Of a stretch of 64,000 nt of DNA, positions 40,545-60,145 are shown piece after piece. A model generated the notes under the pieces. The model saw nothing but the letters and a program-made list of their open reading frames with translations, made no database searches and was not told the DNA's origin. Origin of the DNA: Campylobacteraceae bacterium (GTDB lineage Bacteria > Campylobacterota > Campylobacteria > Campylobacterales > Arcobacteraceae). Each line of letters opens with the position of its first letter. Position 1 is the stretch's first letter. The stretch spans positions 9,945 through 73,944 of the forward strand of contig JABXII010000023.1 in assembly GCA_013373175.1 (NCBI GenBank), given 5' to 3'. The position numbers and the translations under genes were made by a program.

Positions 40545-42485
40545 TTATCCCTCTAGTGCTTCATTTATTTCTTTTTTCAAATTATCTACAACTTCTTGAA
40601 GAGCTTTTTTCATTTTTTCATCGGATAGATTTGCATTAATTAACTTATCTAAATTTCCTTCTCTCTCTTTAAAAAATTTTGCAACAGATTTACTCTTTTT
40701 TCTATGGTTATACATCAAAATACCAGAAGCAATTAAAACGACAACTAATCTTGTATGTCCTAAAATTGCTGCATAATTAAGAATTGTAAATCCTGCATAA
40801 TCAGCTGCATTTATATCAGCTCCTGCTGAGATTAAAAGTCTTGCAATTTTATAATTACCTTTCCATTGAGTATGATGAAGAGCTGTTCTTCCTTGCTTGT
40901 CTCTAATATCTAGATTACTTTTCTTACTTAATAATTTCTCAACAACTTCTATGTCATCAGCCATTACTGCTTTGTGGAAGATAGTTCTTCCATCTTTGTC
41001 CACAGTATCAATATCCACTCTAAATTTAAGTAAAAAAACTAATCTTTCTAAAAACTGCTCTTTTTCTCTTTGTCTTGTTATTTTAAGACCATTATCTATC
41101 ATATGAGATAGAGGTGTTACCCCTTCATTATCTTCTACATTTAAGTCTGCACCTGCATTAACTATAAGTTTGATAATGTCCAAATTATTTTCATTTACTA
41201 AATCAAAAATAAGTGTTCTTCCATTTACTCGGGGTTGATTTATTTTTGGTTTAAATAGAAGCATTTTCTTTAATAATACGAAATAGTCTTCTGTCTCACT
41301 TAACTCTAAAAATCTTTTTAAAGTAGGTTTTTTATTGTTTCGTGTAATTAGTATTGCTTCACATAAATCATCTATCACTGTTCTTTCTGAATAATCCCTA
41401 TGGTCTATATCTACACCATTTTCTATTAAATGGTCTATCATTTTCATATTTGAAGGACCTTTTAAAACTGCATCAAAAAGAACTGTTCTTCCTTCATTGT
41501 CTTGAGCATTTATATCTGCTCCTGAAGCTAAAAGGAAATTTATAGTGTCATAGTTTTTTCTTTCTACTTCTTTGTATAAAACAGTTTTACCTTGGGAGTC
41601 TGTTCTATTTATTGCAAGACCATTATCAATCAAATAGCCTGTTAACTTTAAGTAGTTTCTTTCTGCATTAACAAATCTATATTTACCCTCTACTTTAATG
41701 TCATCCATTTTTGAGATTGCAAGTATTTTTAAAATTTCATCTAAAAGTGTTTTGTCAGCATGGTCTTTTATATTAAGTTTCACTCCTGCTTCAAGTAAAG
41801 CTTCAATTGTGGAAATAGCCTTTGAACCAAAAACTATAGCATTGAATAAAACATTTTGTCTTTTCTTATCTAATACATTTACATCTATACCATTTGAAAT
41901 TAAATATTTTGTGATTTTATCATTGTCTTTTAATACTGAGTGAAAAAGTACTGTTTGTCCGTTGTTATCAGTGATATTTATATCATCGACATTATTTACA
42001 ACTTCTTTTATAATTTCTAAATTTCCACCTTCAACTGCATCAAAAAGAACAGTTCTTCCATAATGGTCAGTTATTGTAAGGTCAGGCTCATGAGCCATTA
42101 AAATTTTAAATACTTTGTCATTCTCTTCTAAGGCAGCATCTTGAAGTACAGTTCTTCCAGAAGAATTGATATGGTTTACAGAAGAGCCATTGTCAAGTAG
42201 GAATCTTATCATCATTCCATCCATTTTATCAGCAGCTTCACTTAATACTGTTTTTCCATAATTATCTTCAGCATTAATATCGATTCCATTTTTAATTAAA
42301 ATTTTTATTGATTCAATTCTTCTTTTTGCAGCAAGTTCAAATAATAAAGTTCTACCTTTACCATCTTTTTTATTGATATCTACGCCACCATTTATTAAAG
42401 ATTGTATTTTCTTTTCATCAATATAGTTTTTAAGAAGCTCCTTATGGAGGGCTTCTGTATTGTCACCTTTGAACATACCTAACAT
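40545..42485 (-). CDS. Ankyrin-repeat protein (646 aa)
   Basis: More than a dozen GxTxLxxA...G.D.N..D units (e.g. GADINAQDNEGRTVLFDAV). Confidence 0.93.
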   Translation of the reverse strand: MLGMFKGDNTEALHKELLKNYIDEKKIQSLINGGVDINKKDGKGRTLLFELAAKRRIESIKILIKNGIDINAEDNYGKTVLSEAADKMDGMMIRFLLDNGSSVNHINSSGRTVLQDAALEENDKVFKILMAHEPDLTITDHYGRTVLFDAVEGGNLEIIKEVVNNVDDINITDNNGQTVLFHSVLKDNDKITKYLISNGIDVNVLDKKRQNVLFNAIVFGSKAISTIEALLEAGVKLNIKDHADKTLLDEILKILAISKMDDIKVEGKYRFVNAERNYLKLTGYLIDNGLAINRTDSQGKTVLYKEVERKNYDTINFLLASGADINAQDNEGRTVLFDAVLKGPSNMKMIDHLIENGVDIDHRDYSERTVIDDLCEAILITRNNKKPTLKRFLELSETEDYFVLLKKMLLFKPKINQPRVNGRTLIFDLVNENNLDIIKLIVNAGADLNVEDNEGVTPLSHMIDNGLKITRQREKEQFLERLVFLLKFRVDIDTVDKDGRTIFHKAVMADDIEVVEKLLSKKSNLDIRDKQGRTALHHTQWKGNYKIARLLISAGADINAADYAGFTILNYAAILGHTRLVVVLIASGILMYNHRKKSKSVAKFFKEREGNLDKLINANLSDEKMKKALQEVVDNLKKEINEALEG

Positions 42486-45703: not shown

Positions 45704-48310
45704 ATGAGAATTAATACTAACGTATCATCTATTACTGCACAAGAATCAGCAGTTAATACTGGTAAAAACATCAAAAACTCATTAGAGAAATTATCTTCAG
45801 GTCTTAGAATCAACAAAGCGTCAGATGATGCATCTGGTCTAGCAATTGCTGATAAATTAAGAACTCAAGCAACTTCTATTAATCAAGGTGTTTCAAATGG
45901 TAATTCAGCAGTTACATTACTTCAAATTGCTGATAAATCAATGGCTGAGCAATCAAATATTCTTGATACTATAAAATCTAAACTTATCCAAGCTAATACT
46001 GATACTACATCACCAGATGGTAGAGAATCTATTAGAAAAGATATTGTTAAACTTTTAGAGCAACTAGATAATATTGCTGAACAAACTAACTATAATGGTA
46101 ATGTATTACTTCAAGCTGCAGCTGATGACAAAGGTGAGTCAAGCTCATTATCTTTCCAAATTGGGGAATCAAATGCAGACATTATCAAAAATACTTCAGT
46201 ACAATCAAATACTGATGGATTAGGTTCAAAAACAGTTTATTCTCAAAAAAATGATAATAATACTATTGCTGCTACTGAATCAAAAACAGTAGCAAGTACT
46301 GGAACTATTTCTTTAACAGCAACAAATTCTTCTGATGAAAATACAGCAGAATCTATTTCTTTATCGGGAGATGTAGACTCTATTGCATTAAAAGAAGGAA
46401 TGACTATTTCAGGAATGGATTCTGCAACTCAAAGTGCTTTATTAGCTCATTTAACTACAGAAGGTACTAGTTATACTCAAAGTGGTAATACATTTACTAT
46501 AAATGAAGATACAACTTTAGATTTATCTTCAGTTGATTCTGTTACTGCAACTATCGTTACTACTGCTGAAAGTTCAAGTAGTTTTTCACCATCTGAAGGT
46601 GATATTGTTACTGCTTCAACTACAAATACAGGAAGTGCTTTAGCTACTGCTTTAACTGATGGTAGTAAATTTGTAGATAATTTAGATGGTACTTATACTG
46701 CAAAAGCAGGTGTAGGTTCACTTACACTTGAAGCTGGTGAATCTGTTGATTATAGTCAAGCAACTTTAGATAATACATTTACTACAGGTGATGTACTATC
46801 AGCTGTTACTACAAAAGCTGGAAGTGCTTTAGCAAATGCATTAGGAGATCCGGCTAAATTTAATGATAATGGTGATGGTACTTATACTGCATTAGCAGGG
46901 GCTGGTACTGTTTCTGTAGGTTTAGGAGAGAGCTTTACTGTAGATACTCCTACTAACTTAGCTGCAGATGTTGGAGATATAATTGATGTTAGTGGAACTG
47001 CTCCTAATGGAGGTAGTGCTCTTGAAACTGCATTAAATGATCCTTCTAAATTTGAAGATTTAGGTGGTAACAAATACAAATCTCTTCAAAATGGTCAAAG
47101 TATTGCTTTAGAATCTGGGGAATCTGTTGAGAAACTTGATGCAAAAACAGTTGGTATTGGTGCTTCATCAATCCCTGCAGGTTCAGTTGTTACATTAAAC
47201 TCTACTTTTGGTGGTGGAGCAACAGGTAGTACAGGTACTGACTTAGATAATCAATTATCAAATGCTTCTAAATTTACTGATAATGGTGATGGTACATTTA
47301 CTGTACTTGCAGACTTTACTGCTGACAACTTAAAATTAGTTGATGGAGAAAGTATTACAGTAACTTTAGCTGAAGAAGTTGGATTAACTGGAGCATCTGA
47401 TGCTGCTATGATTAATGATGCAAATGTTCAATTAAATGGTAGTGCAGCTGATTATGATTCTACTAATGGTAAAGTTGTAGGAGAAGGTTCAGCAGATGGT
47501 TCAGACCCACTAGTTGCATCTACTGTAGTTGATTTAGAATTCACTGTAACTGCACAAAGTGATGGAGATACATTTGAGTTCAAAGCTGGTGATACAGTTT
47601 CTTCGATTGCTGAAACATCAACTAATGGTAATGGATTAAGTGAATCAATTATTGAAAGTGGAAACTGGATTGACAATGGTGACGGTACTTATACAGCAAT
47701 TGCGGATCAAACTGTAACATTTGATGATGCAAATGATAGTTTAGGTGTTACTAGACAAGTAGGAAGTTCAGCAACACCAGTAACGCATACAGGTGATGCA
47801 GCTACAACTGTTGAAAGAGTAGCAAGTACTATAACAGGTACTTCAGCTACAGGTAATGTAACACCAAGTGAAGCAGTATCAGTTGATATCACTACAGATT
47901 CTACAGTTAATGTTACTAATAATGGTGGAGCAACAGACACTCTTACTATTACTGGTACTGAAGAAGTTTCAAATGGTGGAACTCAATTATCAGCATTAGC
48001 AGAACTTGCAAGTGGAACATTAACAGCAGCTAAAGCTTCTGAATTCCAAGCAGTAGTTGATGATGCTATTACTGACCTGAATGGATATAGAGGGGACATC
48101 GGTTCGACTCAAAACCAAGTTGAATCTGCCGTTAGAAACTTAATGACACAAGCAACAAACGTTAAAGCTGCTGAGTCTATTATTAGAGATGTTGATTATG
48201 CAAAAGAATCTGCAAACTTCAACAAACAAAATATTATTTCACAAGCTGGTTCATATGCTATTTCACAAGCAAATGCAACTCAACAAAATGTATTAAGATT
48301 ATTACAATAA
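45704..48310 (+). CDS. flaA: Flagellin, unusually large (868 aa) with repetitive central domains
   Basis: N-terminus MRINTN...LSSGLRINKASDDASGLAIA. C-terminus YRGDIGSTQNQ...IRDVDYAKES...VLRLLQ. Roughly 600-aa S/T/G/D-rich insert. Confidence 0.97.
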   Translation: MRINTNVSSITAQESAVNTGKNIKNSLEKLSSGLRINKASDDASGLAIADKLRTQATSINQGVSNGNSAVTLLQIADKSMAEQSNILDTIKSKLIQANTDTTSPDGRESIRKDIVKLLEQLDNIAEQTNYNGNVLLQAAADDKGESSSLSFQIGESNADIIKNTSVQSNTDGLGSKTVYSQKNDNNTIAATESKTVASTGTISLTATNSSDENTAESISLSGDVDSIALKEGMTISGMDSATQSALLAHLTTEGTSYTQSGNTFTINEDTTLDLSSVDSVTATIVTTAESSSSFSPSEGDIVTASTTNTGSALATALTDGSKFVDNLDGTYTAKAGVGSLTLEAGESVDYSQATLDNTFTTGDVLSAVTTKAGSALANALGDPAKFNDNGDGTYTALAGAGTVSVGLGESFTVDTPTNLAADVGDIIDVSGTAPNGGSALETALNDPSKFEDLGGNKYKSLQNGQSIALESGESVEKLDAKTVGIGASSIPAGSVVTLNSTFGGGATGSTGTDLDNQLSNASKFTDNGDGTFTVLADFTADNLKLVDGESITVTLAEEVGLTGASDAAMINDANVQLNGSAADYDSTNGKVVGEGSADGSDPLVASTVVDLEFTVTAQSDGDTFEFKAGDTVSSIAETSTNGNGLSESIIESGNWIDNGDGTYTAIADQTVTFDDANDSLGVTRQVGSSATPVTHTGDAATTVERVASTITGTSATGNVTPSEAVSVDITTDSTVNVTNNGGATDTLTITGTEEVSNGGTQLSALAELASGTLTAAKASEFQAVVDDAITDLNGYRGDIGSTQNQVESAVRNLMTQATNVKAAESIIRDVDYAKESANFNKQNIISQAGSYAISQANATQQNVLRLLQ
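46631..47698 (+). repeat. About five copies of a ~63-aa module inside flagellin
   Basis: GSAL..AL.D.SKF.DNxDGTYTA units starting at 46631, 46820, 47012, 47234 and 47627 (spacings 189, 192, 222, 393 nt). Confidence 0.88.
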
Positions 48311-50939: not shown

Positions 50940-51182
50940 ATGAGAGAAAACCTTCATGAGCTAAAAAAGTTTTCGCTAATAGCAATAGGTTCTATTGCTA
51001 TTACGATGCTTCTTAGCTATCATGTTGCAAATATTCTTTTTGGAGATAACTCTTTAGAAGTTTATACTTCTTTAAAAAATAAAAAAGAGTATCTTCAAAG
51101 CGAAATTAAAAGATTACAGCTTGAAAATGCTCATTTGCAAAAAGAGTATTTTGAACTAAAAAATTTGGAGCCGGAAGAATGA
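50940..51182 (+). CDS. ftsB: Septum formation initiator FtsB/DivIC-like
   Basis: One TM followed by a leucine-zipper coiled coil. Located directly after eno, the conserved position. Confidence 0.75.
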   Translation: MRENLHELKKFSLIAIGSIAITMLLSYHVANILFGDNSLEVYTSLKNKKEYLQSEIKRLQLENAHLQKEYFELKNLEPEE

Positions 51183-51880
51183 AAACTTTATTTACACTGT
51201 TACTACTTTTACCCCTATCAATATTTGCTAGGGAAAATCCTTTTCAACCAACTAATGCTTATGAAGAAGAACAAGCAAGAATGATTGAACTAAACGAGAT
51301 GGATGAAAATTATGCAATTGAATTCCAAGCAGAACAACATTATATAAATGAAGTATATGAGAAAATGAACAATCCTGCTGAAGAAAAAAAAGCAGAGAAA
51401 AAAGAGCCAAAAAAACCAGCACTTACAAAAGAAGAAGTTAAAAAGCTAATTGAAAAAGCTAAAAAAGAGACAGAAAAAAAGACAAAAGAGATTGTTAAAA
51501 AAGCTGTTGATGAAAAGCCAAAAGAAATAGAGCAAGTTGTTTATGTAAAACCTAGACTTGACGTTACTTATGAAAAAGAGATTCTTCCATTTGTAAAAGT
51601 TGAGTATGACAATGACAAGATTGATATTCACTCAGATTATAAAGTTTCAAAAAAATTAACTCTACCAGGGAAAAAGAAAATTATCTTAGACTATACTGCT
51701 AATAAAAACTTCTATACTGTAAGAGAAAAATTAGAGTCAACTAACTTCTTAAAAGTAGCAGTAGGAAATCACAAAAAAGATGGTTACTTTAGAATTGTTG
51801 TTGAATTAGCACAATTACCAGAAAACTACGAAGTATCATATAATGATAATAGAGTTACTATCGTTAGACTTTATGAATAA
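51179..51880 (+). CDS. AMIN-domain-containing periplasmic protein
   Basis: Signal peptide then RENPF. C-terminal KIILD...VAVGNH...YFRIVVEL AMIN-like domain. Confidence 0.8.
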   Translation: MKTLFTLLLLLPLSIFARENPFQPTNAYEEEQARMIELNEMDENYAIEFQAEQHYINEVYEKMNNPAEEKKAEKKEPKKPALTKEEVKKLIEKAKKETEKKTKEIVKKAVDEKPKEIEQVVYVKPRLDVTYEKEILPFVKVEYDNDKIDIHSDYKVSKKLTLPGKKKIILDYTANKNFYTVREKLESTNFLKVAVGNHKKDGYFRIVVELAQLPENYEVSYNDNRVTIVRLYE

Positions 51881-51882
51881 TA

Positions 51883-51922
51883 ATTTAGAAGATTTTAGAT
51901 GCTTTTCTAAAATCTTCTAAAT
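51883..51922. terminator. 17-bp perfect inverted repeat at the convergence of the eno operon and the neu cassette
   Basis: ATTTAGAAGATTTTAGA-TGCTTT-TCTAAAATCTTCTAAAT. Overlaps the last codons of neuA. Confidence 0.75.
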
Positions 51923-52565
51923 CTTCTATACTATCAATATCTAAACTTTTTTCTAAACTCATTTCATAAGAAATAGTTTTATCTGTAAAAAAACTTTCAT
52001 TTTTTAAAAACTCTTCTACATTTATAATATAAATTGCACCATTACTCATATAAGTTTTAGGTAAATCTTGTCTTCTCATAAAAGGATATTGGTTATTAGA
52101 AATACCTTCAATATATCCAAATTTATTTTCCTTAAAAGCTTTCAGTATCTTATTATCATATTCACAGACACTTATTAAAGCACTAGCTTCTGAAGTAAAT
52201 AGTTTTTCAAAAGCATTATCAATATCGTTAGCATCTCTTAAAGGTGAAGTAGGTTGTAATAAAACTATATAATCAAATTTTTCTTCAATACTTTCTAGGA
52301 GATGCTTAACCACAACTTCACTTGAAGATGTATCTGTCGCAAATTCATCAGGTCTTTTTATTATTTCTGCACCATATTTTATTGCAATTCCTAAAATCTC
52401 CTCACTGTCACTACTTACTATAGTTTTTGAAATATATTTTGAATTAAGACTAGCTTTAATTGTCCATGAAATAAGAGGTATCCCTGCTATATCAATAATA
52501 TTTTTCCTAGGAAGTCCTTTTGACCCTCCTCTTGCAGGAATAATTGCTAATACCTTTTTAGTCAT
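51885..52565 (-). CDS. neuA: Acylneuraminate (CMP-nonulosonate) cytidylyltransferase
   Basis: IIPARGGSKGLPRKN, VSSDS, LLQPTSPLR, RRQDL, NGAIY, DIDS. Confidence 0.93.
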   Translation of the reverse strand: MTKKVLAIIPARGGSKGLPRKNIIDIAGIPLISWTIKASLNSKYISKTIVSSDSEEILGIAIKYGAEIIKRPDEFATDTSSSEVVVKHLLESIEEKFDYIVLLQPTSPLRDANDIDNAFEKLFTSEASALISVCEYDNKILKAFKENKFGYIEGISNNQYPFMRRQDLPKTYMSNGAIYIINVEEFLKNESFFTDKTISYEMSLEKSLDIDSIEDLEDFRKASKIF

Positions 52566-53787
52566 CAAATCCATCTTTGTTTACTGTATGTCTTAGCTTC
52601 CATTCACCATCAACTTCTTTCCAGATGTGTGGACTTCTATGTTTATTAACTGTCTCCCAAAACTCTTCTTCTGTTGAATCAATATATTCTAAAAACTCTT
52701 CAAAGTATTTTGCAGGGAATTCAGTATCATACTTTTTAACTAAATATGCTGCTTCTTCTCTTGTGATTTTACCATTTCTAACTTCTTGTGCAGCATCATA
52801 TGTAGCTCTACCTATTCCAAATTTAATCAAAGTTGTAAAATAATGAAAAGGATCAATTTTATCATCAATACTACTGTATTTAGAATAACTTCCCTCTGTT
52901 CTAACTGTATTAGCTTCAAATCCTGTATTATCTGCTGCATAATAATAGCACTCTTGAGGATCCCACTTTAAATAATATCCTAAATAATGTACTTCCACTC
53001 CTGCATCAATTAGTTCTTGCTTATTAGGAGCAATATATGGAGCAAAGTCATCTTTTGTGTATTTCCCCGTATCTATATACTCTTGCATAGTAACTCCACC
53101 AAACTTCATTTCAAGCGCATTATCATTTGAAAAGAAATCCATATTCATAATTGGATTTGTATTTTCTTCAATTGCATTTCCATATTCTGCTTGATTTTCT
53201 CCATACATTACTAATTGAACACCAAATTTTTTGGCCATAGCAGGACCAATAATTCTCTGTCCTACGATAAAGGGTTGAAAAGGATGTAGTAAATTATGAA
53301 AAGCATTTTTTGTCATTTCTCTATGAAGTTTTCCATTTGGTGTATATAATATATTATCATGTCCACCTACATGCATCCAATTTTGAAAGTTTTTCCAACC
53401 AATATCTGTATAAAGATGAGGCGCCCATGTAACAGTAAGAGGGTTCATACCATACTTATATTTTAAAATATGAGAAGTATATGCACTATCTTTACCCCCA
53501 CTACCTGGAACAATTACATCATATGAACCATCTTTGCTTCTAAATTTAGCAAGTAATTCTCTAAGTTTTTCATCTCTTTCTTCCCAATCAATACCCGTCT
53601 CTTTCTCTTCATGGTAAACACAAGCAGAACAAACATCTTCTTCATTAAAATTAATTACTTTTTTCTTTTCACCCTTATCACTTTTAAACTCAACTGTTGA
53701 ACTAGGTCTTTGATTAGATATTACACATTTTTTACAAAATTTAACTTCATTTGGTAACCCATAATATGCTTCTAACTTTTCAGCCAT
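52558..53787 (-). CDS. N-acetyl sugar amidotransferase (WbuX/PseA/PtmG family)
   Basis: CKKC...C..C N-terminus, PP-loop VPGSGGKDS, MYGEN, YLGYY..WD, SIDD, KFGIGRA. Confidence 0.92.
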   Translation of the reverse strand: MAEKLEAYYGLPNEVKFCKKCVISNQRPSSTVEFKSDKGEKKKVINFNEEDVCSACVYHEEKETGIDWEERDEKLRELLAKFRSKDGSYDVIVPGSGGKDSAYTSHILKYKYGMNPLTVTWAPHLYTDIGWKNFQNWMHVGGHDNILYTPNGKLHREMTKNAFHNLLHPFQPFIVGQRIIGPAMAKKFGVQLVMYGENQAEYGNAIEENTNPIMNMDFFSNDNALEMKFGGVTMQEYIDTGKYTKDDFAPYIAPNKQELIDAGVEVHYLGYYLKWDPQECYYYAADNTGFEANTVRTEGSYSKYSSIDDKIDPFHYFTTLIKFGIGRATYDAAQEVRNGKITREEAAYLVKKYDTEFPAKYFEEFLEYIDSTEEEFWETVNKHRSPHIWKEVDGEWKLRHTVNKDGFDD

Positions 53788-54424
53788 TTTTTCTTTCCTC
53801 ACATAAATCTACAAAATTTTTCATTATTTTTAAGCCAATTTTTCCACTTTTTTCTGGATGGAATTGACATCCATAAATATTATCTTTTTTTACAGAAGAA
53901 CAAAACTTATAATCTGAATATTCAGTAAATGCTAATATATTTTCATCATTTCTAGGTGACACAATAAAACTATGAACAAAATACATATCTGAGTTTTCTT
54001 CTATATCTTTAAGTATTGTATTTTCCCAACTCTTATTTCTTTGTATTTCATTCCAGCTTACATGTGGAAGTTTTTCACTATTTGAGCTTTGTATAGGTAG
54101 TTTTATTACTTTACCCTCTATTAATCCCAATCCTTTATTGAGTCCAAACTCTTCACTCTCTTCCATAAGCATTTGCATTCCCAAACATATACCCATAAAA
54201 GGCTTTTTAGTTTCTACAAAATCATTGATAGTCTCAATTAACTCATACTTCTTAAGATTTTTCATGCCATGGGCAAAAGCCCCTACTCCAGGAAGAATTA
54301 CGCCATCAGAACTTAATATAACTTGCCTATCATTAGTTAAAATAGGTTCTATACCTATTTTTATAAAAGCATTAATAATACTTTTAACATTTCCAATGTC
54401 ATAATCAATTATTGAAATTTTCAT
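53780..54424 (-). CDS. HisH-like glutamine amidotransferase (glycan-locus paralog, WbuY-like)
   Basis: IIDYDIGNVKS, LPGVGAF, GICLGMQ, YFVHS, QFHPEKS. Confidence 0.92.
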   Translation of the reverse strand: MKISIIDYDIGNVKSIINAFIKIGIEPILTNDRQVILSSDGVILPGVGAFAHGMKNLKKYELIETINDFVETKKPFMGICLGMQMLMEESEEFGLNKGLGLIEGKVIKLPIQSSNSEKLPHVSWNEIQRNKSWENTILKDIEENSDMYFVHSFIVSPRNDENILAFTEYSDYKFCSSVKKDNIYGCQFHPEKSGKIGLKIMKNFVDLCEERKNG

Positions 54425-55179
54425 ATTCTAACCTTGATATCTTTCTCGATGATAGAATTTTTAATACTCTTAATATCTTCAATATTATAATGTATTGTAG
54501 AAGCTGTTGCAATTGCATCAATATTTGCTTTTGTAAATAAATTTATTGCATCTTTACTATTTCCCATTCCACCACTTGCAATTATAGGAATAGAAACTAC
54601 ACTTTCTACTTCTTTATAAAGTTCTGTTTCAAAACCTTTTTTTGTTCCCTCTTTATCTAAAGAAGTTAACATTATTTCTCCAGCTCCTAACTCTTCTAAT
54701 TTTTGAACCCACGTTATAACATCAACTCCTGTTGGTTCCCTTCCATTTTCAATATAAGCTTCCCATTTATTATCTGATATTTTTTTTGCAACAACTGAAG
54801 CTACAATGCACTGAGAACCAAAAATTTCTGATGCTTCTTTTATAAAATTAGGGTTTTCTATTGCTTTTGTATTTATTGCAACTTTATCAGCACCTGAATT
54901 TAGTGCTTTTTTTATATCATCAATTGTTCTTATTCCACCACCAACCGTAATTGGAACAAAAACTTCTTCACAAGCTTTTTCAATAATATGACTTAAACTA
55001 TTTCGATCATAATATGCAGCAACTGCATCCATAAAAACTATTTCATCTATTCCTTCATCATAGTACTTTTTTGCTAAAATATTTGGGTCTCCTACTTTAC
55101 GAAGTCCTTCTAAATGGATACCTTTAATTACATATTCATTCTTTATATCTAATCTAGCAATTATTCGTTTTTTAATCAT
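54421..55179 (-). CDS. HisF-like cyclase (glycan-locus paralog, WbuZ/HisF2-like)
   Basis: RIIARLDIK...VIKG, VPITVGGGIR, GADKVAINT, GAGEIML, PIIASGG. Confidence 0.92.
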   Translation of the reverse strand: MIKKRIIARLDIKNEYVIKGIHLEGLRKVGDPNILAKKYYDEGIDEIVFMDAVAAYYDRNSLSHIIEKACEEVFVPITVGGGIRTIDDIKKALNSGADKVAINTKAIENPNFIKEASEIFGSQCIVASVVAKKISDNKWEAYIENGREPTGVDVITWVQKLEELGAGEIMLTSLDKEGTKKGFETELYKEVESVVSIPIIASGGMGNSKDAINLFTKANIDAIATASTIHYNIEDIKSIKNSIIEKDIKVRI

Positions 55180-56302
55180 TTACAAAATCCTGGAATTGTT
55201 TTTGATGTTCTACTTCCCACAGTTTATTATTTGATAAAAGTTCAAGAAATTGTTTATCACTATTTCCTTCTCCAAATAAGTTATTATCTGTTTCTTCTAC
55301 TTTATATTCTTTCATCAATTTTATTGCATGTAAAATTTCTGTTTTTTCATAACTAGTATGAATAATAGATTTTAATTTTGCTCTATTTAACTGTCTTGTA
55401 CCTATATCAATTGTTGGTATATTATAAAAAGGAGCTTCTCTAATTCCAGCACTAGAGTTTCCTATTATAAAATCACTTTGTTCTAATAATCGTAAAAAAA
55501 ACTCAAACCTAAGGGAAGGAAAGATTTTGATTTTCTTAGAATTAATTTTATTATATTCATTTAAAATCTCATTGGAACCTATATCATTATTTGGGTACAC
55601 TAATATATAATTTTTACCACTTTCTATTATAGCGTCTACAAAGTTTTTAGAATATTCTATAATATTGTCATATTCAGTAGTTATAGGATGAAACATCCCT
55701 ATTGCATAGTTTTTAAAGTCAATTTCATAGTAATCTTTGACAAATTCTATAGAAGGAAGTCTTGAAGGTTTCATTAAGTCTAAATCAGGCGAACCTATTA
55801 CATGTACTGAATTAGAAAACTCTCCTAATTGTATAAGTCTTTTTTTTGCTTCTTCATTTGCTACTAAATGAATGTGAGAAAGTTTACTTGTTGCATGTCG
55901 AATAGATTCATCGATTGTTCCCGAAATTTCTCCTCCTTCAATATGTGCAACTAATATATTATTTAAACTTCCAACAATAGCTCCTGCTAAAGCTTCTACT
56001 CTATCTCCATGAATAACAATAAGGTCAGGTTTATATTCTGCAACAAACATTGAAAAACCATTTATAGTTCGAGCAAGAGTTCTATCCATATGTTCTACTG
56101 TATCATGATTAATATATTGAAATATATTCTTAAAGCCTGATTTATATATTTCATCCACTGTATAACCATATTTAGTATTTAAATGCATTCCCGTTGCAAA
56201 AATACTAATGTCAAATAATTCTGAATCTTGAGTTATTTTAATCAATGATTTTAGCTTTCCAAAATCAGCACGAGTTCCACTTAAAAAAACTATTTTTTTC
56301 AT
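55172..56302 (-). CDS. neuC: UDP-N-acetylglucosamine 2-epimerase (hydrolysing)
   Basis: SGTRADFGK, TGMHL, HGDRVE, HIEGGE, DESIRHA, GNSSAG, GTRQ. Confidence 0.95.
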   Translation of the reverse strand: MKKIVFLSGTRADFGKLKSLIKITQDSELFDISIFATGMHLNTKYGYTVDEIYKSGFKNIFQYINHDTVEHMDRTLARTINGFSMFVAEYKPDLIVIHGDRVEALAGAIVGSLNNILVAHIEGGEISGTIDESIRHATSKLSHIHLVANEEAKKRLIQLGEFSNSVHVIGSPDLDLMKPSRLPSIEFVKDYYEIDFKNYAIGMFHPITTEYDNIIEYSKNFVDAIIESGKNYILVYPNNDIGSNEILNEYNKINSKKIKIFPSLRFEFFLRLLEQSDFIIGNSSAGIREAPFYNIPTIDIGTRQLNRAKLKSIIHTSYEKTEILHAIKLMKEYKVEETDNNLFGEGNSDKQFLELLSNNKLWEVEHQKQFQDFVND

Positions 56303-56982
56303 TTTATTATAAATGCAATATTATGAGAATAATCTAACTTTTGAATAATTACTCTATCTTCAAAAAAATCATCTATTGCCTTATTAGCTCCTGCAAAATC
56401 TCCATAATCATCAAATATAATTATTCCACCCTTTACAACATGAGAAAATAACAACTCTAAAGATAATTTTGTAGCTTCATATAAATCAACATCTATGTGT
56501 AGTAAAGAGATTTTCAGTTGAGGGTTTTTTTTCAAGTACTCTGGTAAAGTTTGTAAAATATCACCTTTTATAAGTTCTACATTTTTATTTAGTTTCTGTT
56601 TTTCCAAGAGGTCATTTAATTCTTCTAAAGATATACCTCTTCCCCCATCAGTCTCTTTAATAAATAATTCCCTTTCTTTCTTATCCTCTTCAAATTCAGT
56701 TACAGGGAAATCACCAAATACATCAAAAGCAATAATTTTTCTACTATAAGTATTTTCTAGTAATTCTCTAAATTTTATCCATCTAAAAAGAGAATTTCCT
56801 TTAAAGACACCTAGTTCTACTATCTCACCACGTATACAAGTTGTTCTTTTAAAAAACTCTAAATGAGTCAATATTTTACTTAATCTTCGTGGTTCTGCAG
56901 TTGCATAAAAACCATTTTCATATTCAAAATTTTTTTCTAAATCATATAACATTTTTTCTCTTTCAAATTTCAATATTTTCAT
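56299..56982 (-). CDS. TylF/MycF-family methyltransferase
   Basis: GEIVELGVFKG, FDVF, LLHIDVDLYE, GGIIIFDDY. Confidence 0.88.
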   Translation of the reverse strand: MKILKFEREKMLYDLEKNFEYENGFYATAEPRRLSKILTHLEFFKRTTCIRGEIVELGVFKGNSLFRWIKFRELLENTYSRKIIAFDVFGDFPVTEFEEDKKERELFIKETDGGRGISLEELNDLLEKQKLNKNVELIKGDILQTLPEYLKKNPQLKISLLHIDVDLYEATKLSLELLFSHVVKGGIIIFDDYGDFAGANKAIDDFFEDRVIIQKLDYSHNIAFIIK

Positions 56983-56990
56983 CTTCAATT

Positions 56991-58028
56991 TTAATTAATA
57001 TCTTCCCAACTTAAATGAGTATCACTTAAAATACTTTTTGAAGCTTTTTTACCAATTATATCATTGTAGTACTCTGCTTTAATAGGACCAGTACCAGGCC
57101 TTTTTACCCAAAGATTGTCTTTCGTGAACTCTTCACCTTTTTGAATGTCTTTAATTGTTACAACTGTTGCAAAAGCAAAATCTATTGTAACTTGTTCTTC
57201 TGCTGCTGGTTCTTTTACTCCACCTCTCATTAGTGATATTTCTTTACTACCAATAATAAGTTCTTTTAATGCAATTGGATCCATTGAATTAATAATATCA
57301 GGACCTGTTCTTTCCATTTTATCTGTAAAATGTCTTTCTAAAATACATGCTCCTAGTGCTGTTGCAGCAAAACAAGCTCTATTTGAAGTAGTGTGGTCAG
57401 ATAAGCCTACAATAGCATTAGGAAACTCTTTTTGGAGTTCTTGCATTGCACCAAGTCTAACAAGATGTACAGGAGTAGGATAAAGATTTGTTGTATGAAG
57501 TAAAGCATAAGATACATTTTTTCTTTCTAGTATGTCAACTGTTTTTTTTACTTGTCTAATATCATTCATTCCTGTACTTACAATCATTGGTTTACCAAAA
57601 GATGCAATATGCTCTATGAGTGGATAATTATTACACTCCCCAGAACCAATTTTATATGCGCTTACACCTATTCTTTCAAGTCTATCTGCTGCTGCTCTTG
57701 AAAAAGGAGTACTAATAAAAATCATTCCTTTTGACTCAATATAGTCTTTTAACTTTTTTTCGTCTTCTTCACTTAATGCACATCTTTCCATTATTTCATA
57801 AATAGACTCAGATGCATTTCCTGGAACAACATTTTTAGCTTCTTTACTCATTTCATCTTCCACTACATGTGTTTGATGTTTTATAACTTCTGCTCCAGCT
57901 TTCCAAGCTTCATCAACCATCTCAAGAGCTGTTTCTAAAGACCCTTCATGATTAATACCAATTTCTACTATTACTAAAGGAGGTTTTTCTAAACTTATTT
58001 CTCTGTTTTCTATAATTAACTTTTTCAT
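56991..58028 (-). CDS. neuB: N-acetylneuraminate synthase (Neu5Ac-type NeuB/SiaC)
   Basis: [52 protein letters not shown]-terminal SAF domain (WVKRPG). Confidence 0.95.
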
Positions 58029-58144
58029 AAGATTTCTTTAAATGATTTATTCTTTTAGTATAGCTATTTTTTTATTATTTTTTAATGATTTTATTTTAAT
58101 TATAAACTTGCTATTATGATTATACAAATTAAAGTGGATAAAGA

Positions 58145-60145
58145 ATGAATGATATAACAAATAAAGTACTTAAAACATACAATAATAATTTAGAATTTCT
58201 CAAACAGAAAGACTCAGAATTATATAATAAAGTAATTCTTTTAGAGCAAGCTATCGAAGAAAATTTATATAAAGAAAATTTTTTTTTAGAATTTAAAGAT
58301 GATAAATACTTTGATATTTTTGCAGATAATTCACAAAGTTTTATTTATAACCAAGACACTTACTTGTATGGAGAAAAAGAAGCAAAAAAAGTCAATTATT
58401 TGCCAAGTGAAAACTCATTTAAAACTTTTTATGACTTTTCTAATATACCAAATAATTTATTAACTTCATATAGTTTAATGGATGTTAATGGACATCACTT
58501 TTCATGCATTGCATCCATTCTTTCTTATATTAATACAAATACTCCTAAAAAACAAACACTACAAAAAATTAATAAGTTTTTATTTTTAGGTGTAGGATTA
58601 GGTACTCATATCCAACCTATTCACAATAAAATAAAAGCAAACACATATTTTATTGCTGAAGAAAATCTTGAGATATTTAGACTTTCTTTATTTACCACTA
58701 ATTATTATGAGATAGCAAAAGATTCAGCTATTAAATTTTCTATTTCAGATACAGAGGAAGTATTCAAAAAAAAATTTAATGATTATTTCAATTATGGATT
58801 TGTTTTTAATCACTTTTTAAAATTTAATTTATTTTCAAAAAATGCTGAAAAATTTGTTACTCTTATTCAATCTTGTCTTACAGAACAAGACCATTATTTA
58901 TTTCCATATCATAGGCCATATACCACTATTGAAAGATTATTTAATAGAAAAAAAGAAAATATTTTGGATGTGAGTAAATTACATGAATCTTTTAAAAATA
59001 CAGATAAACCTATTTTAATATTAGCTTCTGGTCCCTCTTCTAAGTACAACGAGGAGTGGTTAAAAGAAAACCAAGATAAGTTTATAATTGTTGCTATTTT
59101 TGCATCTTTGAGTTTTTGTGAAAAGAATAGTATTAAACCAGATATTATAATACAAATAGATGAATATGAAATTGCTACAGAGATAATCTTAAAGAAGGTA
59201 AAATCAAAAAAGTTATTTGAAGATTCAATTTTTGTATTAGGTTCTGCTGTTCATCAAAATATCGAAGAAGAATTCCAAAAAAATAAAAAATTTTTCGTTC
59301 AAATGAATCGAATTAATATGCATGAATCTTTAGGAAGAATTTCTGCTACAAGTGTAGGAGAATTTACTTATTGTTTATTGTTAAAATTAGGATTTAAAGA
59401 AATTTATCTATTAGGACTTGATTTAGCATTAGATCCAACTACTAATAAATCTCATGCTGATGACCACCATGCAAATAAAGAACTTAATAATAATGATGAA
59501 ATAGAAGAAGTATTTAGTATTACAAATAGTACTTTTAAAATAAAAGGTAATTTTCAAAAAGAAGTTTATACAACAACACTTTTTTATACTTCTATTAAAC
59601 TTTTTAATCAAATGAGTAGAGTACTTAAAGAAGATTGGCAAAATGTTTACAATTTAAATAATGGAGCATTCCTAGAAGGTGCACAACCGAAAAGAGTTGA
59701 AGAAATTGATATGTTAAACTTTAAAAATCTTGATAAACTCAGTTTAAATCAGGATTTATTTTCATCTCTTAACTCAATAAGTAAAAATATCATTAGTGAA
59801 AGCGATTTAGAGATATTAAATATTAAACTTAATAATGCATATAAAGTTAAAAAAGTTATTGATAACTTCGCAGAAATAAAAAGTTATAGTAATAGTAGTA
59901 TATATATGAAAAAAATACTAGAATTGATTTCAACAATTGTGAAACATAAGGATATAGATAATCTATCTGATATTTTATATAACTATTTCCAATTTATCAT
60001 TCATTATATTGTTTATTTTTTCCATTTAAAAGAAGTTGACAATCATAAAAAACATATAAAAAAGATTAACAAACTACTTATAAAAGAATTATATAGATTA
60101 GTAGATAAATATATTGAACATTATGAAGAATTACTAAAAAAGTAA
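58145..60145 (+). CDS. maf: Motility-associated factor (Maf) flagellin glycosyltransferase
   Basis: FLGVGLGTHI, EENLEIFRLSL, ILASGPS, KPDIIIQID, SVGEF, LLGLDLA, VYNLNNGA (Maf/DUF115 architecture). Confidence 0.88.
   Translation: MNDITNKVLKTYNNNLEFLKQKDSELYNKVILLEQAIEENLYKENFFLEFKDDKYFDIFADNSQSFIYNQDTYLYGEKEAKKVNYLPSENSFKTFYDFSNIPNNLLTSYSLMDVNGHHFSCIASILSYINTNTPKKQTLQKINKFLFLGVGLGTHIQPIHNKIKANTYFIAEENLEIFRLSLFTTNYYEIAKDSAIKFSISDTEEVFKKKFNDYFNYGFVFNHFLKFNLFSKNAEKFVTLIQSCLTEQDHYLFPYHRPYTTIERLFNRKKENILDVSKLHESFKNTDKPILILASGPSSKYNEEWLKENQDKFIIVAIFASLSFCEKNSIKPDIIIQIDEYEIATEIILKKVKSKKLFEDSIFVLGSAVHQNIEEEFQKNKKFFVQMNRINMHESLGRISATSVGEFTYCLLLKLGFKEIYLLGLDLALDPTTNKSHADDHHANKELNNNDEIEEVFSITNSTFKIKGNFQKEVYTTTLFYTSIKLFNQMSRVLKEDWQNVYNLNNGAFLEGAQPKRVEEIDMLNFKNLDKLSLNQDLFSSLNSISKNIISESDLEILNIKLNNAYKVKKVIDNFAEIKSYSNSSIYMKKILELISTIVKHKDIDNLSDILYNYFQFIIHYIVYFFHLKEVDNHKKHIKKINKLLIKELYRLVDKYIEHYEELLKK

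Follow-up and report, generated by a model that had tools for sequence, protein, structure and literature searches.

Several described systems share parts with the locus reported here, an operon beside a maf gene in a 64,000-nucleotide stretch of DNA (the window) from a Campylobacteraceae bacterium that GTDB places in the Arcobacteraceae. Maf-linked Neu5Ac has been predicted for the FGI type I island of Geobacillus (De Maayer & Cowan 2016, PMC5109656), and the Maf of Geobacillus kaustophilus (GkMaf), expressed in E. coli, O-sialylates flagellin Ser/Thr with Neu5Ac (Khairnar et al., bioRxiv 10.1101/2020.06.03.131540). As in that island, maf and flagellin genes have Neu-type neuB, neuC and neuA as neighbours in our locus, and three Bacillaceae islands contain a homologue (45-52%) of the window's methyltransferase. 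By contrast, the Geobacillus island lacks the amidotransferase trio and belongs to Bacillota, not Campylobacterota, and the window's Maf is ~25% identical to that of a Gracilibacillus island (the one Bacillaceae Maf compared).

The lipopolysaccharide of L. pneumophila carries 5-acetamidino legionaminic acid, in which a D-glycero-D-galacto nonulosonate bears the amidine at N5. The cluster responsible comprises the same six enzyme families as our operon, and its N-acetyl sugar amidotransferase (NASAT; PDB 8WEX) is the closest structurally characterised relative of the window's enzyme (505 bits); both have an extra loop, residues 55-69, that is said to be absent from other NASATs (PMC10607449). 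However, the Legionella NeuB and NeuC are of the LegI and LegG types (NeuB with other active-site columns), LegC and NeuD genes lie alongside, the target is the O-antigen, and the cluster contains neither maf nor a methyltransferase. Maf-dependent glycosylation of flagellin with an amidinated and methylated nonulosonate is the function of the C. jejuni/coli ptm-leg locus (LegB/C/H/G/I/F, PtmG, PtmH and Maf4), but its core enzymes are 30-37% identical to ours, PtmH belongs to another methyltransferase family, and LegB, LegC and PtmE/F/A have no counterpart in our operon. In the Neu5Ac pathway of N. meningitidis and of Campylobacter LOS (SiaA/B/C; NeuC1/B1/A1), NeuB is 62-63% identical to the window's and has the same active-site residues, and Campylobacter LOS-type genes match the window's NeuC and NeuA at 53% and 51% identity. 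There, by contrast, Neu5Ac reaches capsule or LOS via sialyltransferases, is neither amidinated nor methylated, and has no link to maf. We know of no structurally established case of an amidino-methyl true sialic acid.

A seven-gene operon divergent from maf

The minus strand between 51885 and 58028 holds a single tightly packed operon of seven genes (Table 1), as the original prediction had it: neighbouring genes are separated by 2-bp gaps or overlap by 4-23 bp, and the sole terminator-like hairpin inside the operon lies at the neuA 3' end. Two further predicted features were found, the divergent arrangement with maf, across a spacer in which no promoter rose above the background of the AT-rich DNA, and the flagellin gene, whose end is 3.6 kb from neuA.

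Table 1. Features of the nonulosonate operon and its surroundings (positions in the window)
Feature	Position	Strand	Evidence or remark
neuB, Neu-type nonulosonate synthase	56991..58028	-	345 aa; PF03102 (NeuB) + SAF; TIGR03569 396.5 bits
TylF/CalS11-family SAM-dependent sugar O-methyltransferase	56299..56988	-	229 aa; PF05711 TylF 77.9 bits
neuC, hydrolysing UDP-GlcNAc 2-epimerase	55172..56302	-	376 aa; TIGR03568 413.7 bits, cut-off 235.9
hisF-like, HisF paralogue (WbuZ type)	54421..55179	-	TIGR03572 WbuZ 274 bits
hisH-like, HisH paralogue (class-I glutaminase)	53780..54424	-	TIGR01855 224 bits
wbuX/NASAT, N-acetyl sugar amidotransferase	52558..53802	-	TIGR03573 361.3 bits, cut-off 203.2
neuA, CMP-nonulosonate (CMP-sialic acid) synthetase	51885..52574	-	229 aa; PF02348
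Terminator-like 18-bp hairpin, operon 3' end	51882..51923	-	at neuA 3' end
Divergent AT-rich spacer neuB/maf, 116 bp	58029..58144	.	presumed site of both promoters
maf, flagellin nonulosonate glycosyltransferase	58145..60145	+	666 aa; PF01973 + PF20157
Flagellin, presumed acceptor	45704..48310	+	868 aa

We consider it reasonably probable that this operon directs the synthesis of a true sialic acid bearing a methyl group and, in place of N-acetyl, a charged acetamidino group, and that it is the donor module of a flagellin island in which Maf attaches the sugar to flagellin. NeuC would hydrolyse and epimerise UDP-GlcNAc to ManNAc, NeuB would combine ManNAc with PEP to give Neu5Ac, and NeuA would convert Neu5Ac to CMP-Neu5Ac. 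Probably at the CMP-sugar stage, the PP-loop NASAT would use ATP and ammonia to turn the 5-acetamido into a 5-acetamidino group (Neu5Am), the ammonia being produced by the HisH-like glutaminase and reaching it via the HisF-like barrel. The TylF/CalS11-type methyltransferase would add an O-methyl group, and Maf would transfer the sugar to Ser/Thr of the flagellin's long acidic central domain. The chemistry of every step, the sequence in which amidination and methylation occur, the position of the methyl group and the role of flagellin as acceptor are all inferred from the genes and their relatives.

Backbone enzymes and the tailoring cassette

NeuB carries every signature motif quoted in the original prediction, and its assignment to the Neu type, not to LegI or PseI, is borne out: identity is 62% with N. 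meningitidis SiaC (PDB 1xuu, E = 3.6e-136), compared with 37% for Campylobacter LegI, 35% for the LegI of Legionella and 30% for PseI, and the protein falls in a 100/99-supported clade with SiaC and Campylobacter LOS-type NeuB. Its active-site columns are those of SiaC, and regions 23-27, 51-57, 68-88, 127-136 and 180-188 are as in SiaC, unlike both LegI references; region 70-85 and positions 132 and 184 have been described as determinants of sugar specificity (PMC7371886). The TIGR03569 score lies slightly below the NCBIfam equivalog cut-off (399.65). In five clusters, however, near-identical NeuBs of the Neu clade are accompanied by a Polysacc_synt_2 dehydratase, an SDR and an enzyme resembling PtmE, so that clade membership does not strictly prove ManNAc as the substrate.

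The other two backbone enzymes likewise group with the Neu type, NeuA at weaker resolution. NeuC, the only NeuC-type gene product of the genome, belongs to a 67-row NeuC clade (SH-aLRT 95) apart from the A. baumannii and Campylobacter LegG references, and its motif HIEGGEISGTID is the same as in human GNE, whereas LegG has a one-residue insert. Within this enzyme family, the NeuCs from amidino cassettes form a sub-clade of their own (16 rows, SH-aLRT 98). NeuA matches the V. cholerae (191 bits) and N. meningitidis (123 bits) NeuA structures and is placed with the latter and away from LegF in a poorly resolved tree, in which a PseF reference also lies, on a long branch, inside NeuA's broad clade.

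The NASAT has the PP-loop SGGKDS and a CxxC...CxxC motif; since its relatives are 409 aa long, translation may in fact begin a few codons after the listed GTG. In the NASAT tree, the enzymes that accompany a Neu-type NeuB, the window's among them, form one clade (SH-aLRT 100), which in the loci compared never occurs alongside LegI or LegC. Its sister clade consists of 78 relatives of the Legionella NASAT, and here the synthase is of the LegI type in all 51 loci in which a NeuB-family synthase was seen, usually together with LegG and LegC. The HisH paralogue retains the GICLGMQ and HPE motifs, and the HisF paralogue has Val in place of the second catalytic Asp of the housekeeping copy (VASVVAKK vs VVAIDVKK); housekeeping hisF and hisH genes are present on contigs C18 and C5, respectively. 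Ammonia probably reaches the amidotransferase through the HisF paralogue. Loci of Sulfurimonas, Halarcobacter, Flavobacteriaceae, Alphaproteobacteria, Neptuniibacter, Nitrospirales and Neomarinimicrobiota share the six-gene order neuB-neuC-hisF-hisH-NASAT-neuA. In E. coli O145, WbuXYZ are encoded near neu genes, yet reportedly amidinate L-FucNAc, not sialic acid. Putative CMP-Neu5Am peaks have been described in C. jejuni (bioRxiv 10.64898/2026.04.20.719630, 2026 preprint).

The methyltransferase gene is inserted between neuB and neuC, a placement seen across four phyla, both in loci with the amidotransferase trio and in loci that lack it (three examples). Among PDB entries, its product best matches the TDP-rhamnose 3'-O-methyltransferase CalS11 (E = 4.8e-16), and it has no similarity to Campylobacter PtmH. 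A methyltransferase is thus present, as predicted, but of the sugar O-methyltransferase type and not a PtmH-like N-methylase.

The flagellin island and alternative products

Like its counterparts in congeners, the flagellin is encoded at the trmA-flaA position; its central 610 aa are acidic with 27.7% Ser+Thr. In three congeners the corresponding site, marked by the suv3 helicase gene and trmA-flaA, is taken up by maf and a set of Pse or Leg genes, in the order trmA-flaA-pseI-maf in two and trmA-flaA-flaA-maf-LegI in the third. The island for flagellin glycosylation thus has a fixed place, and the operon is likely to be its donor module. Two other genera of the family likewise have Neu-type neuB and neuC next to maf and genes for flagellin, and in one locus two maf genes follow the cassette. 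The window's maf is the sole MptE/Maf gene of the 2.76-Mb genome, and among the Mafs of 150 genomes of the family none exceeds 38% identity to its product; the donor type is not reflected in Maf similarity, with Neu-adjacent and PseI-adjacent Mafs in one subgroup. The position shared with the islands of the three congeners strongly supports flagellin as the probable target of the operon's sugar.

The original prediction held that no dehydratase, aminotransferase or acetyltransferase for a Pse/Leg precursor is present. This stands for the operon: a scan of the ORFs at 32-64 kb turned up neither a 4,6-dehydratase nor an acetyltransferase of the NeuD type, and the window's contig has no DegT-type aminotransferase. 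It fails genome-wide, because contig C25 carries a second nonulosonate cluster, with genes for a dehydratase, an aminotransferase of the LegC family (576 bits) and a NeuD-like acetyltransferase. The genome's diamino-sugar genes, with its sole NulO-type aminotransferase, are confined to C25; the other DegT gene is flanked by nadE and lpxK. The C25 enzymes could in principle supply a 2,4-diacetamido-2,4,6-trideoxy sugar in trans, from which the operon would make a 5-acetamidino legionaminic acid derivative, and the NASAT-hisF-hisH-neuA-neuB-neuC content shared with the Legionella cluster, the high score between the two NASATs and the lack of a NeuC-type epimerase in the C25 cluster all speak for it. 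We nevertheless regard such a product as very improbable, given that neither NeuB nor NeuC falls within the LegI and LegG clades, the active-site columns are of the Neu type, and the NASAT clade keeps apart from LegI and LegC. Moreover, the C25 genes sit in a polysaccharide locus with its own cytidylyltransferase, two NASATs and a synthase that groups with PseI (100/92); this synthase has a bulky residue at a position that is Gly in Neu and Leg types, so a 2-epimerase is probably superfluous there. These legB/C-type genes are therefore unlikely to feed the window operon.

The Pse-like C25 sugar could also be the Maf donor for flagellin, leaving the modified sialic acid for LOS, capsule or another glycoconjugate. 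The Maf of relatives usually lies beside pseI (six loci), and the amidino cassette is also found in polysaccharide loci of non-flagellated Flavobacteriaceae and, as a second copy, in a polysaccharide-like locus of Halarcobacter (cassette loci L030 and L018). Against this, the operon sits in the position of the congeners' Pse/Leg islands, maf is its divergent neighbour and the only transferase gene in or adjoining it, and the genome contains no GT42 sialyltransferase (in a search with a positive control) and no GT52 match (in one without). The C25 cluster, by contrast, is surrounded by GT1/GT2 genes and a PglK-like exporter, which suggests a polysaccharide fate for its own product, and we think it quite improbable that the two sugars have exchanged roles. 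It is unlikely, though not far-fetched, that a Neu backbone reaches flagellin with different tailoring: the trio might act on another group or sugar (the carboxylate, or UDP-HexNAc before NeuC), the amidine might be N-methylated, or the methyltransferase might be inactive. The NASAT substrate has been determined for no member of the family (PMC10607449), and acetimidoyl UDP-HexNAc has also been seen (bioRxiv 10.64898/2026.04.20.719630). The separate NeuC sub-clade of amidino cassettes would fit an altered substrate, and N-methylacetimidoyl Leg is made by C. jejuni. However, the active site of NeuB shows no change near the N-acetyl pocket, and the sister NASAT clade is Leg-associated, in keeping with the 5-acetamidino Leg of the Legionella O-antigen. 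N-methylation of the amidine is disfavoured by the loci that have the methyltransferase without the trio, and by its membership of an O-methyltransferase family unrelated to PtmH.

The overall interpretation, an amidino/methyl-modified Neu on flagellin, is supported at the level of sequence by the NeuB, NeuC and NASAT clades, the active site and synteny. The claim that the system is undescribed needs narrowing, because Maf-linked true sialic acid had been predicted in Geobacillus and sialylation by GkMaf seen in E. coli; the combination with an amidotransferase and a methyltransferase is new. What the locus adds, within a flagellin island of Campylobacterota, is a dedicated Neu-specific amidotransferase lineage together with a sugar O-methyltransferase.

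Predicted product and layout of the operon

The operon may encode a native pathway to methyl-Neu5Am (Neu, neuraminic; Am, acetamidino), a sialic acid both zwitterionic and O-methylated, which would be O-linked directly to flagellin Ser/Thr. The route would run through a Neu-specific lineage of the amidotransferase NASAT, sister to the Legionella Leg5Am enzyme (Leg, legionaminic), that has spread as a six-gene cassette in at least six phyla. We regard this reading, taken whole, as evenly balanced between right and wrong, and its chemistry is predicted from sequence at every step.

The source genome (2.76-Mb, about 28% G+C, family Arcobacteraceae) has its closest named DNA in a Halarcobacter ebronensis MAG. 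Genes were called by ORF listing and by Pfam and NCBIfam scans, which bore out the layout in the original prediction: a seven-gene operon, a divergent maf and a flagellin gene 3.6 kb away. Successive operon genes are separated by 2-bp gaps or overlap by 4-23 bp. The genes recA and eno, an ftsB-like gene and one unassigned ORF lie between the flagellin gene and neuA. In the AT-rich spacer between neuB and maf, promoter and sigma-factor motifs matched as often as in shuffled background, and none was called. Compared with H. ebronensis proteins, the products of hisF, NASAT, hisH and neuC are 92-99% identical and those of neuB and neuA 82-83%, and because of these unequal identities the operon looks mosaic in origin. 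Outside the operon, the ankyrin-repeat protein is 76-77% conserved in congeners, at the same position.

Features of the window and of compared loci (L, fetched loci; G, genomes; C25, a contig of the source genome)
Feature	Position	Strand	Basis	Remarks
neuB	56991-58028	minus	Pfam/NCBIfam	
TylF-family methyltransferase	56299-56988	minus	Pfam	
neuC	55172-56302	minus	NCBIfam	
HisF paralogue	54421-55179	minus		
HisH paralogue	53780-54424	minus		
WbuX/NASAT amidotransferase	52558-53802	minus	NCBIfam	
CMP-nonulosonate synthetase (neuA)	51885-52574	minus		
Terminator-like hairpin	51923-51882			at operon end
maf	58145-60145			divergent from operon across 116 bp
Flagellin gene	45704-48310			868 aa; end 3.6 kb from neuA
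233-aa ORF	51179-51880	plus		convergent with neuA; no Pfam match
646-aa ankyrin-repeat protein	40545-42485			between glmU and SUV3-like helicase
Pyruvyl-transferase-family gene	L091 15432-16532			
Pyruvyl-transferase-family gene	L089 5905-7020			
Pyruvyl-transferase-family gene	L016 15460-16566			
Pyruvyl-transferase-type gene	L018 15432-16535			by position and size only
Second nonulosonate cluster	C25:38000-50000 (L009 8085-19396)			inside polysaccharide locus
Syntenic site, congener G178				flaA-pseI-maf
Syntenic site, congener G151				pseB/C/F/G/H/I-maf-flaA
Syntenic site, congener G114				flaA-flaA-maf-LegI-neuD-legC

Sugar type of NeuB, NeuC and NeuA

NeuB, predicted to condense ManNAc with PEP, joins a catalytic PF03102 domain (239 bits) to a C-terminal SAF/antifreeze-like PF08666 domain (47.6 bits) and scores 396.5 bits against the NCBIfam equivalog TIGR03569, 3 bits under its cut-off of 399.65. 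It matches the Neu5Ac synthase SiaC of N. meningitidis (PDB 1xuu) at E = 3.6e-136, and is 62% identical to SiaC versus 35-37% to LegI. In an 87-row ML tree, with LegI and PseI references from a Campylobacter genome (G018) that has a canonical ptm/leg/pse locus, the window NeuB, SiaC and the LOS-type NeuB of Campylobacter all belong to one 82-row clade on a long stem (UFboot/SH-aLRT 100/99), and LegI and PseI fall outside it. The sites that set sugar specificity surround hexosamine C2 and C4-C6 (region 70-85, Gly132 and Asn184 in SiaC numbering; PMC7371886). At these columns the window NeuB is the same as SiaC (EIG, KHQTH, [18 protein letters not shown], KIGSGE and TTNLYPT), whereas LegI of Campylobacter and Legionella has EAG, KFQ[ST]F and KIPSGE, and PseI too differs at [18 protein letters not shown], KIGSGE and TTNLYPT. 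In line with the original prediction, NeuB thus groups with neither LegI nor PseI.

NeuC scores 413.7 bits against TIGR03568 (cut-off 235.9) and sits in a 67-row NeuC clade (SH-aLRT 95) apart from the LegG proteins of A. baumannii (5zlr) and Campylobacter. The window NeuC and human GNE have the motif GGE[IV]SGTID in common; LegG proteins carry a one-residue insert there that the window NeuC does not have. NeuA shares a 29-row clade (SH-aLRT 95) with N. meningitidis NeuA, with LegF in another, in a weak tree whose broad clade also holds a PseF reference on a long branch.

Our initial expectation was a ptm-like Leg locus as in Campylobacter, with Leg5Am7Ac or Leg5AmNMe7Ac as the product. It was rejected: the enzymes of the G018 locus (L111) are 30-37% identical to those of the window, and PtmH is unrelated. 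The Campylobacter locus has LegB/LegC/LegH, LegI/LegG and PtmH, whereas the window operon contains no LegB/LegC/LegH genes, no LegI/LegG-clade enzymes and no PtmH-type methyltransferase. A Legionella-like arrangement, in which Leg-type precursors reach the operon in trans from contig C25, would draw on the second nonulosonate cluster of the genome. This cluster lies in a large polysaccharide locus with a PglK-like exporter, GT1 and GT2 genes and fnlA/fnlC-like genes. It encodes a Polysacc_synt_2 dehydratase, a LegC-family aminotransferase (576 bits), a NeuD-like acetyltransferase, a GT2 and a methyltransferase, and for the late steps a NeuB homologue, a cytidylyltransferase, two NASATs, HisH/HisF copies and a PtmE-like enzyme. 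The C25 synthase groups with PseI (100/92) and shares 29% identity with the window NeuB. The search for a NeuC-type epimerase in the cluster was negative, and the scanned ORFs of the cluster include no recognisable PseG. With a full set of late-pathway enzymes of its own, the locus seems to be a pathway apart, leading to a 5,7-diamino sugar bound for polysaccharide. The original prediction had counted legB/C-type genes elsewhere, as a source of Leg precursor, against itself. Such genes are indeed present, but they come with late enzymes of their own, and the clades of the window NeuB, NeuC and NASAT conflict with supply in trans, which we consider highly improbable.

Two further genes were considered and rejected. 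The only DegT-type gene of the genome besides that of C25 has nadE and lpxK as its neighbours on contig C37, which places it in a lipid A context; it was set aside as a candidate for a bacillosamine/Leg precursor enzyme. A second Epimerase_2 on C25 follows an FnlA-like gene and has no NeuC similarity by tblastn; rather than LegG, it is probably FnlC-like.

Neu-clade NeuB proteins also occur in another setting. In the loci L145 (8743-17325), L032, L037, L044 and L077, such a NeuB stands beside a 396-aa Polysacc_synt_2 dehydratase, a PtmE-like nucleotidyltransferase and a distant NeuC (about 33%). It is 76-83% identical to the window NeuB in L145, L032, L037 and L077, and 73% in L044. In L145, where the active-site motifs were checked, they are identical to those of the window NeuB, and a 287-aa SDR was also seen. 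No aminotransferase was found in these dehydratase/PtmE-like sets. The clusters may make a 9-deoxy sialic acid by dehydration and reduction, and since Neu-clade NeuBs also adjoin dehydratase/SDR/PtmE-like sets lacking an aminotransferase, their substrate range may be wider than ManNAc.

Amidotransferase trio and predicted O-methylation

The trio of NASAT with HisH-like and HisF-like proteins is already known for Leg, Pse (pseudaminic) and FucNAc sugars. The window NASAT scores 361 bits against TIGR03573 (cut-off 203) and carries a PP-loop SGGKDS and a CKKC...CSAC tetracysteine motif; the family hallmarks are a PP-loop SGGxDS and a tetracysteine zinc motif (PMC10607449). It matches the L. pneumophila enzyme (LpNASAT; 8WEX) at 505 bits, and the extra loop described for LpNASAT (PMC10607449) is present in it too. 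We fetched 80 relatives of LpNASAT and inspected their loci: wherever a synthase is visible it is LegI-type, usually accompanied by LegG, LegC, NeuD and PtmE homologues. NASATs 74-97% identical to the window's are found in the fixed order neuB-neuC-hisF-hisH-NASAT-neuA, which lacks an aminotransferase and includes a Neu-type NeuB, in Sulfurimonas, Halarcobacter, Flavobacteriaceae, an alphaproteobacterium, Neptuniibacter, Nitrospirales and Neomarinimicrobiota. The Neu-linked and Leg-linked NASATs are reciprocally separated in a 96-row tree (SH-aLRT 100 each), and PtmG, PseA and the C25 copies fall far outside both sets. This split is the strongest new evidence that the trio may act on a Neu-type product. 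Its predicted action, suggested by the clade-specific co-occurrence with Neu-type NeuB, is to convert the acetamido group at N5 of Neu5Ac to acetamidino, with N5 as the predicted position by homology with the Leg5Am enzyme.

The HisH-like and HisF-like genes beside NASAT are dedicated ones, with housekeeping copies on contigs C5 and C18. In the HisF paralogue, Val replaces the second catalytic Asp of the housekeeping HisF (C18) and the first Asp is retained; the HisH paralogue retains its Cys and His-x-Glu. This combination fits a putative role of the pair in ammonia supply. A 2026 preprint describes putative CMP-Neu5Am in C. jejuni extracts and suggests that such enzymes act on nucleotide sugars (bioRxiv 10.64898/2026.04.20.719630); our literature search turned up no publication in which Neu5Am is established as part of a glycan.

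The methyltransferase scores 77.9 bits against PF05711 (cut-off 23). Its best PDB match is CalS11, a TDP-rhamnose 3'-O-methyltransferase (4.8e-16), and NovP also matches (6.7e-6); it has no similarity to Campylobacter PtmH. Homologues 69-73% identical lie between neuB and neuC in trio-less loci of Smithella, Helicobacteraceae and Winogradskyella, and others (45-52%) in Bacillaceae maf-neuBCA islands. A related-locus search with the methyltransferase alone returned one locus. Because PtmH is unrelated, CalS11 is the closest solved relative and homologues occur where the trio is absent, the best reading is that the enzyme would O-methylate the Neu sugar independently of the amidine. In Halarcobacter and Sulfurimonas amidino cassettes, the next gene after neuA belongs to the polysaccharide pyruvyl-transferase family (366-371 aa). 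The window has the methyltransferase in place of this gene, which points to modular tailoring.

Two observations from relatives belong here. The H. ebronensis MAG (CP182347.1) has two six-gene amidino cassettes (L018 and L091) with identical NeuB, NeuC, NASAT and NeuA, one beside recA, eno and a 730-aa flagellin gene and the other in an apparent polysaccharide locus. In another genus of the family (L143 13617-15578), a flagellin-maf island has genes for a B12-binding radical SAM enzyme and a class-I methyltransferase between its Neu-type neuB and its neuC, which suggests further, different tailoring of a Neu-type flagellar sugar.

Maf, flagellin and an apparent donor-module swap

Maf-dependent nonulosonate glycosylation is well known. 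The window Maf contains PF20157 and PF01973, is encoded beside the flagellin and CMP-nonulosonate genes, and is the product of the sole MptE/Maf gene of the genome. No GT42 sialyltransferase was found in the genome by a search with a positive control, and no GT52 match by a search run without one. The window Maf is weakly similar to that of M. magneticum (5mu5; E = 5e-7), a related-locus search with Maf alone found nothing, and none of the maf products from the 114 of 151 sampled Arcobacteraceae genomes that have the gene is more than 38% identical to it. Maf similarity was not informative as a predictor of the donor. Neu-type NeuB occurs in 10 genomes of the same sample and is absent from all its other members of the genus. 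Maf length is 1077-1409 aa in congeners and in another genus (L228 12826-16488, L230 12250-15483, L143 5985-10214), with an extended C-terminus that has no Pfam match; the window Maf has 666 aa.

We inspected the syntenic site (glmU-ankyrin-suv3 helicase / trmA-flaA) in three congeners. The window holds the Neu-type operon and maf where the congeners carry Pse or Leg genes and maf, and is by this comparison an apparent donor-module swap within a fixed flagellin glycosylation island. Neu-type neuB and neuC directly adjoin maf and flagellin genes in two other genera (L143, L144), and in a Sulfurimonas contig (L089) two maf genes come right after the amidino cassette. The window flagellin has 868 aa versus 433-491 aa in congeners at the same trmA-flaA site, and the extra length is an acidic, Ser/Thr-rich centre: its central 610 residues have a Ser+Thr content of 27.7% and a strongly acidic composition.

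A Neu5Ac-type flagellin island has been predicted in Geobacillus (PMC5109656), and GkMaf O-sialylates flagellin in E. coli, its authors stating that no native flagellin sialylation was known (bioRxiv 10.1101/2020.06.03.131540). What is new here is that a Campylobacterota flagellin island combines a predicted Neu backbone with a Neu-specific NASAT lineage and a CalS11-like O-methyltransferase. If the reading is correct, this would be the first native case in which protein Ser/Thr is O-sialylated with a Neu-type sugar made de novo, and the sialic acid family would have in 5-acetamidino-neuraminic acid a member that is widespread yet has gone unrecognised chemically. The usual view of sialic acids is that they are host-like and carry negative charge; an amidino sialic acid would be net neutral at physiological pH. 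It would probably also be invisible to acid-hydrolysis assays, and an Am-to-Ac shift on hydrolysis is noted in the 2026 SugarBase preprint. The Neu-specific amidotransferase clade would serve as a genetic marker by which such sugars could be traced in many phyla, and the operon enzymes as a defined set for chemoenzymatic CMP-Neu5Am synthesis. The general picture of Maf-dependent flagellin glycosylation is unchanged by these findings. In the genus, one fixed chromosomal island carries Pse, Leg or Neu-type donor modules by species, and these swaps are a natural experiment on how Maf and flagellin adapt, with a bearing on Maf donor promiscuity and on glyco-engineering.
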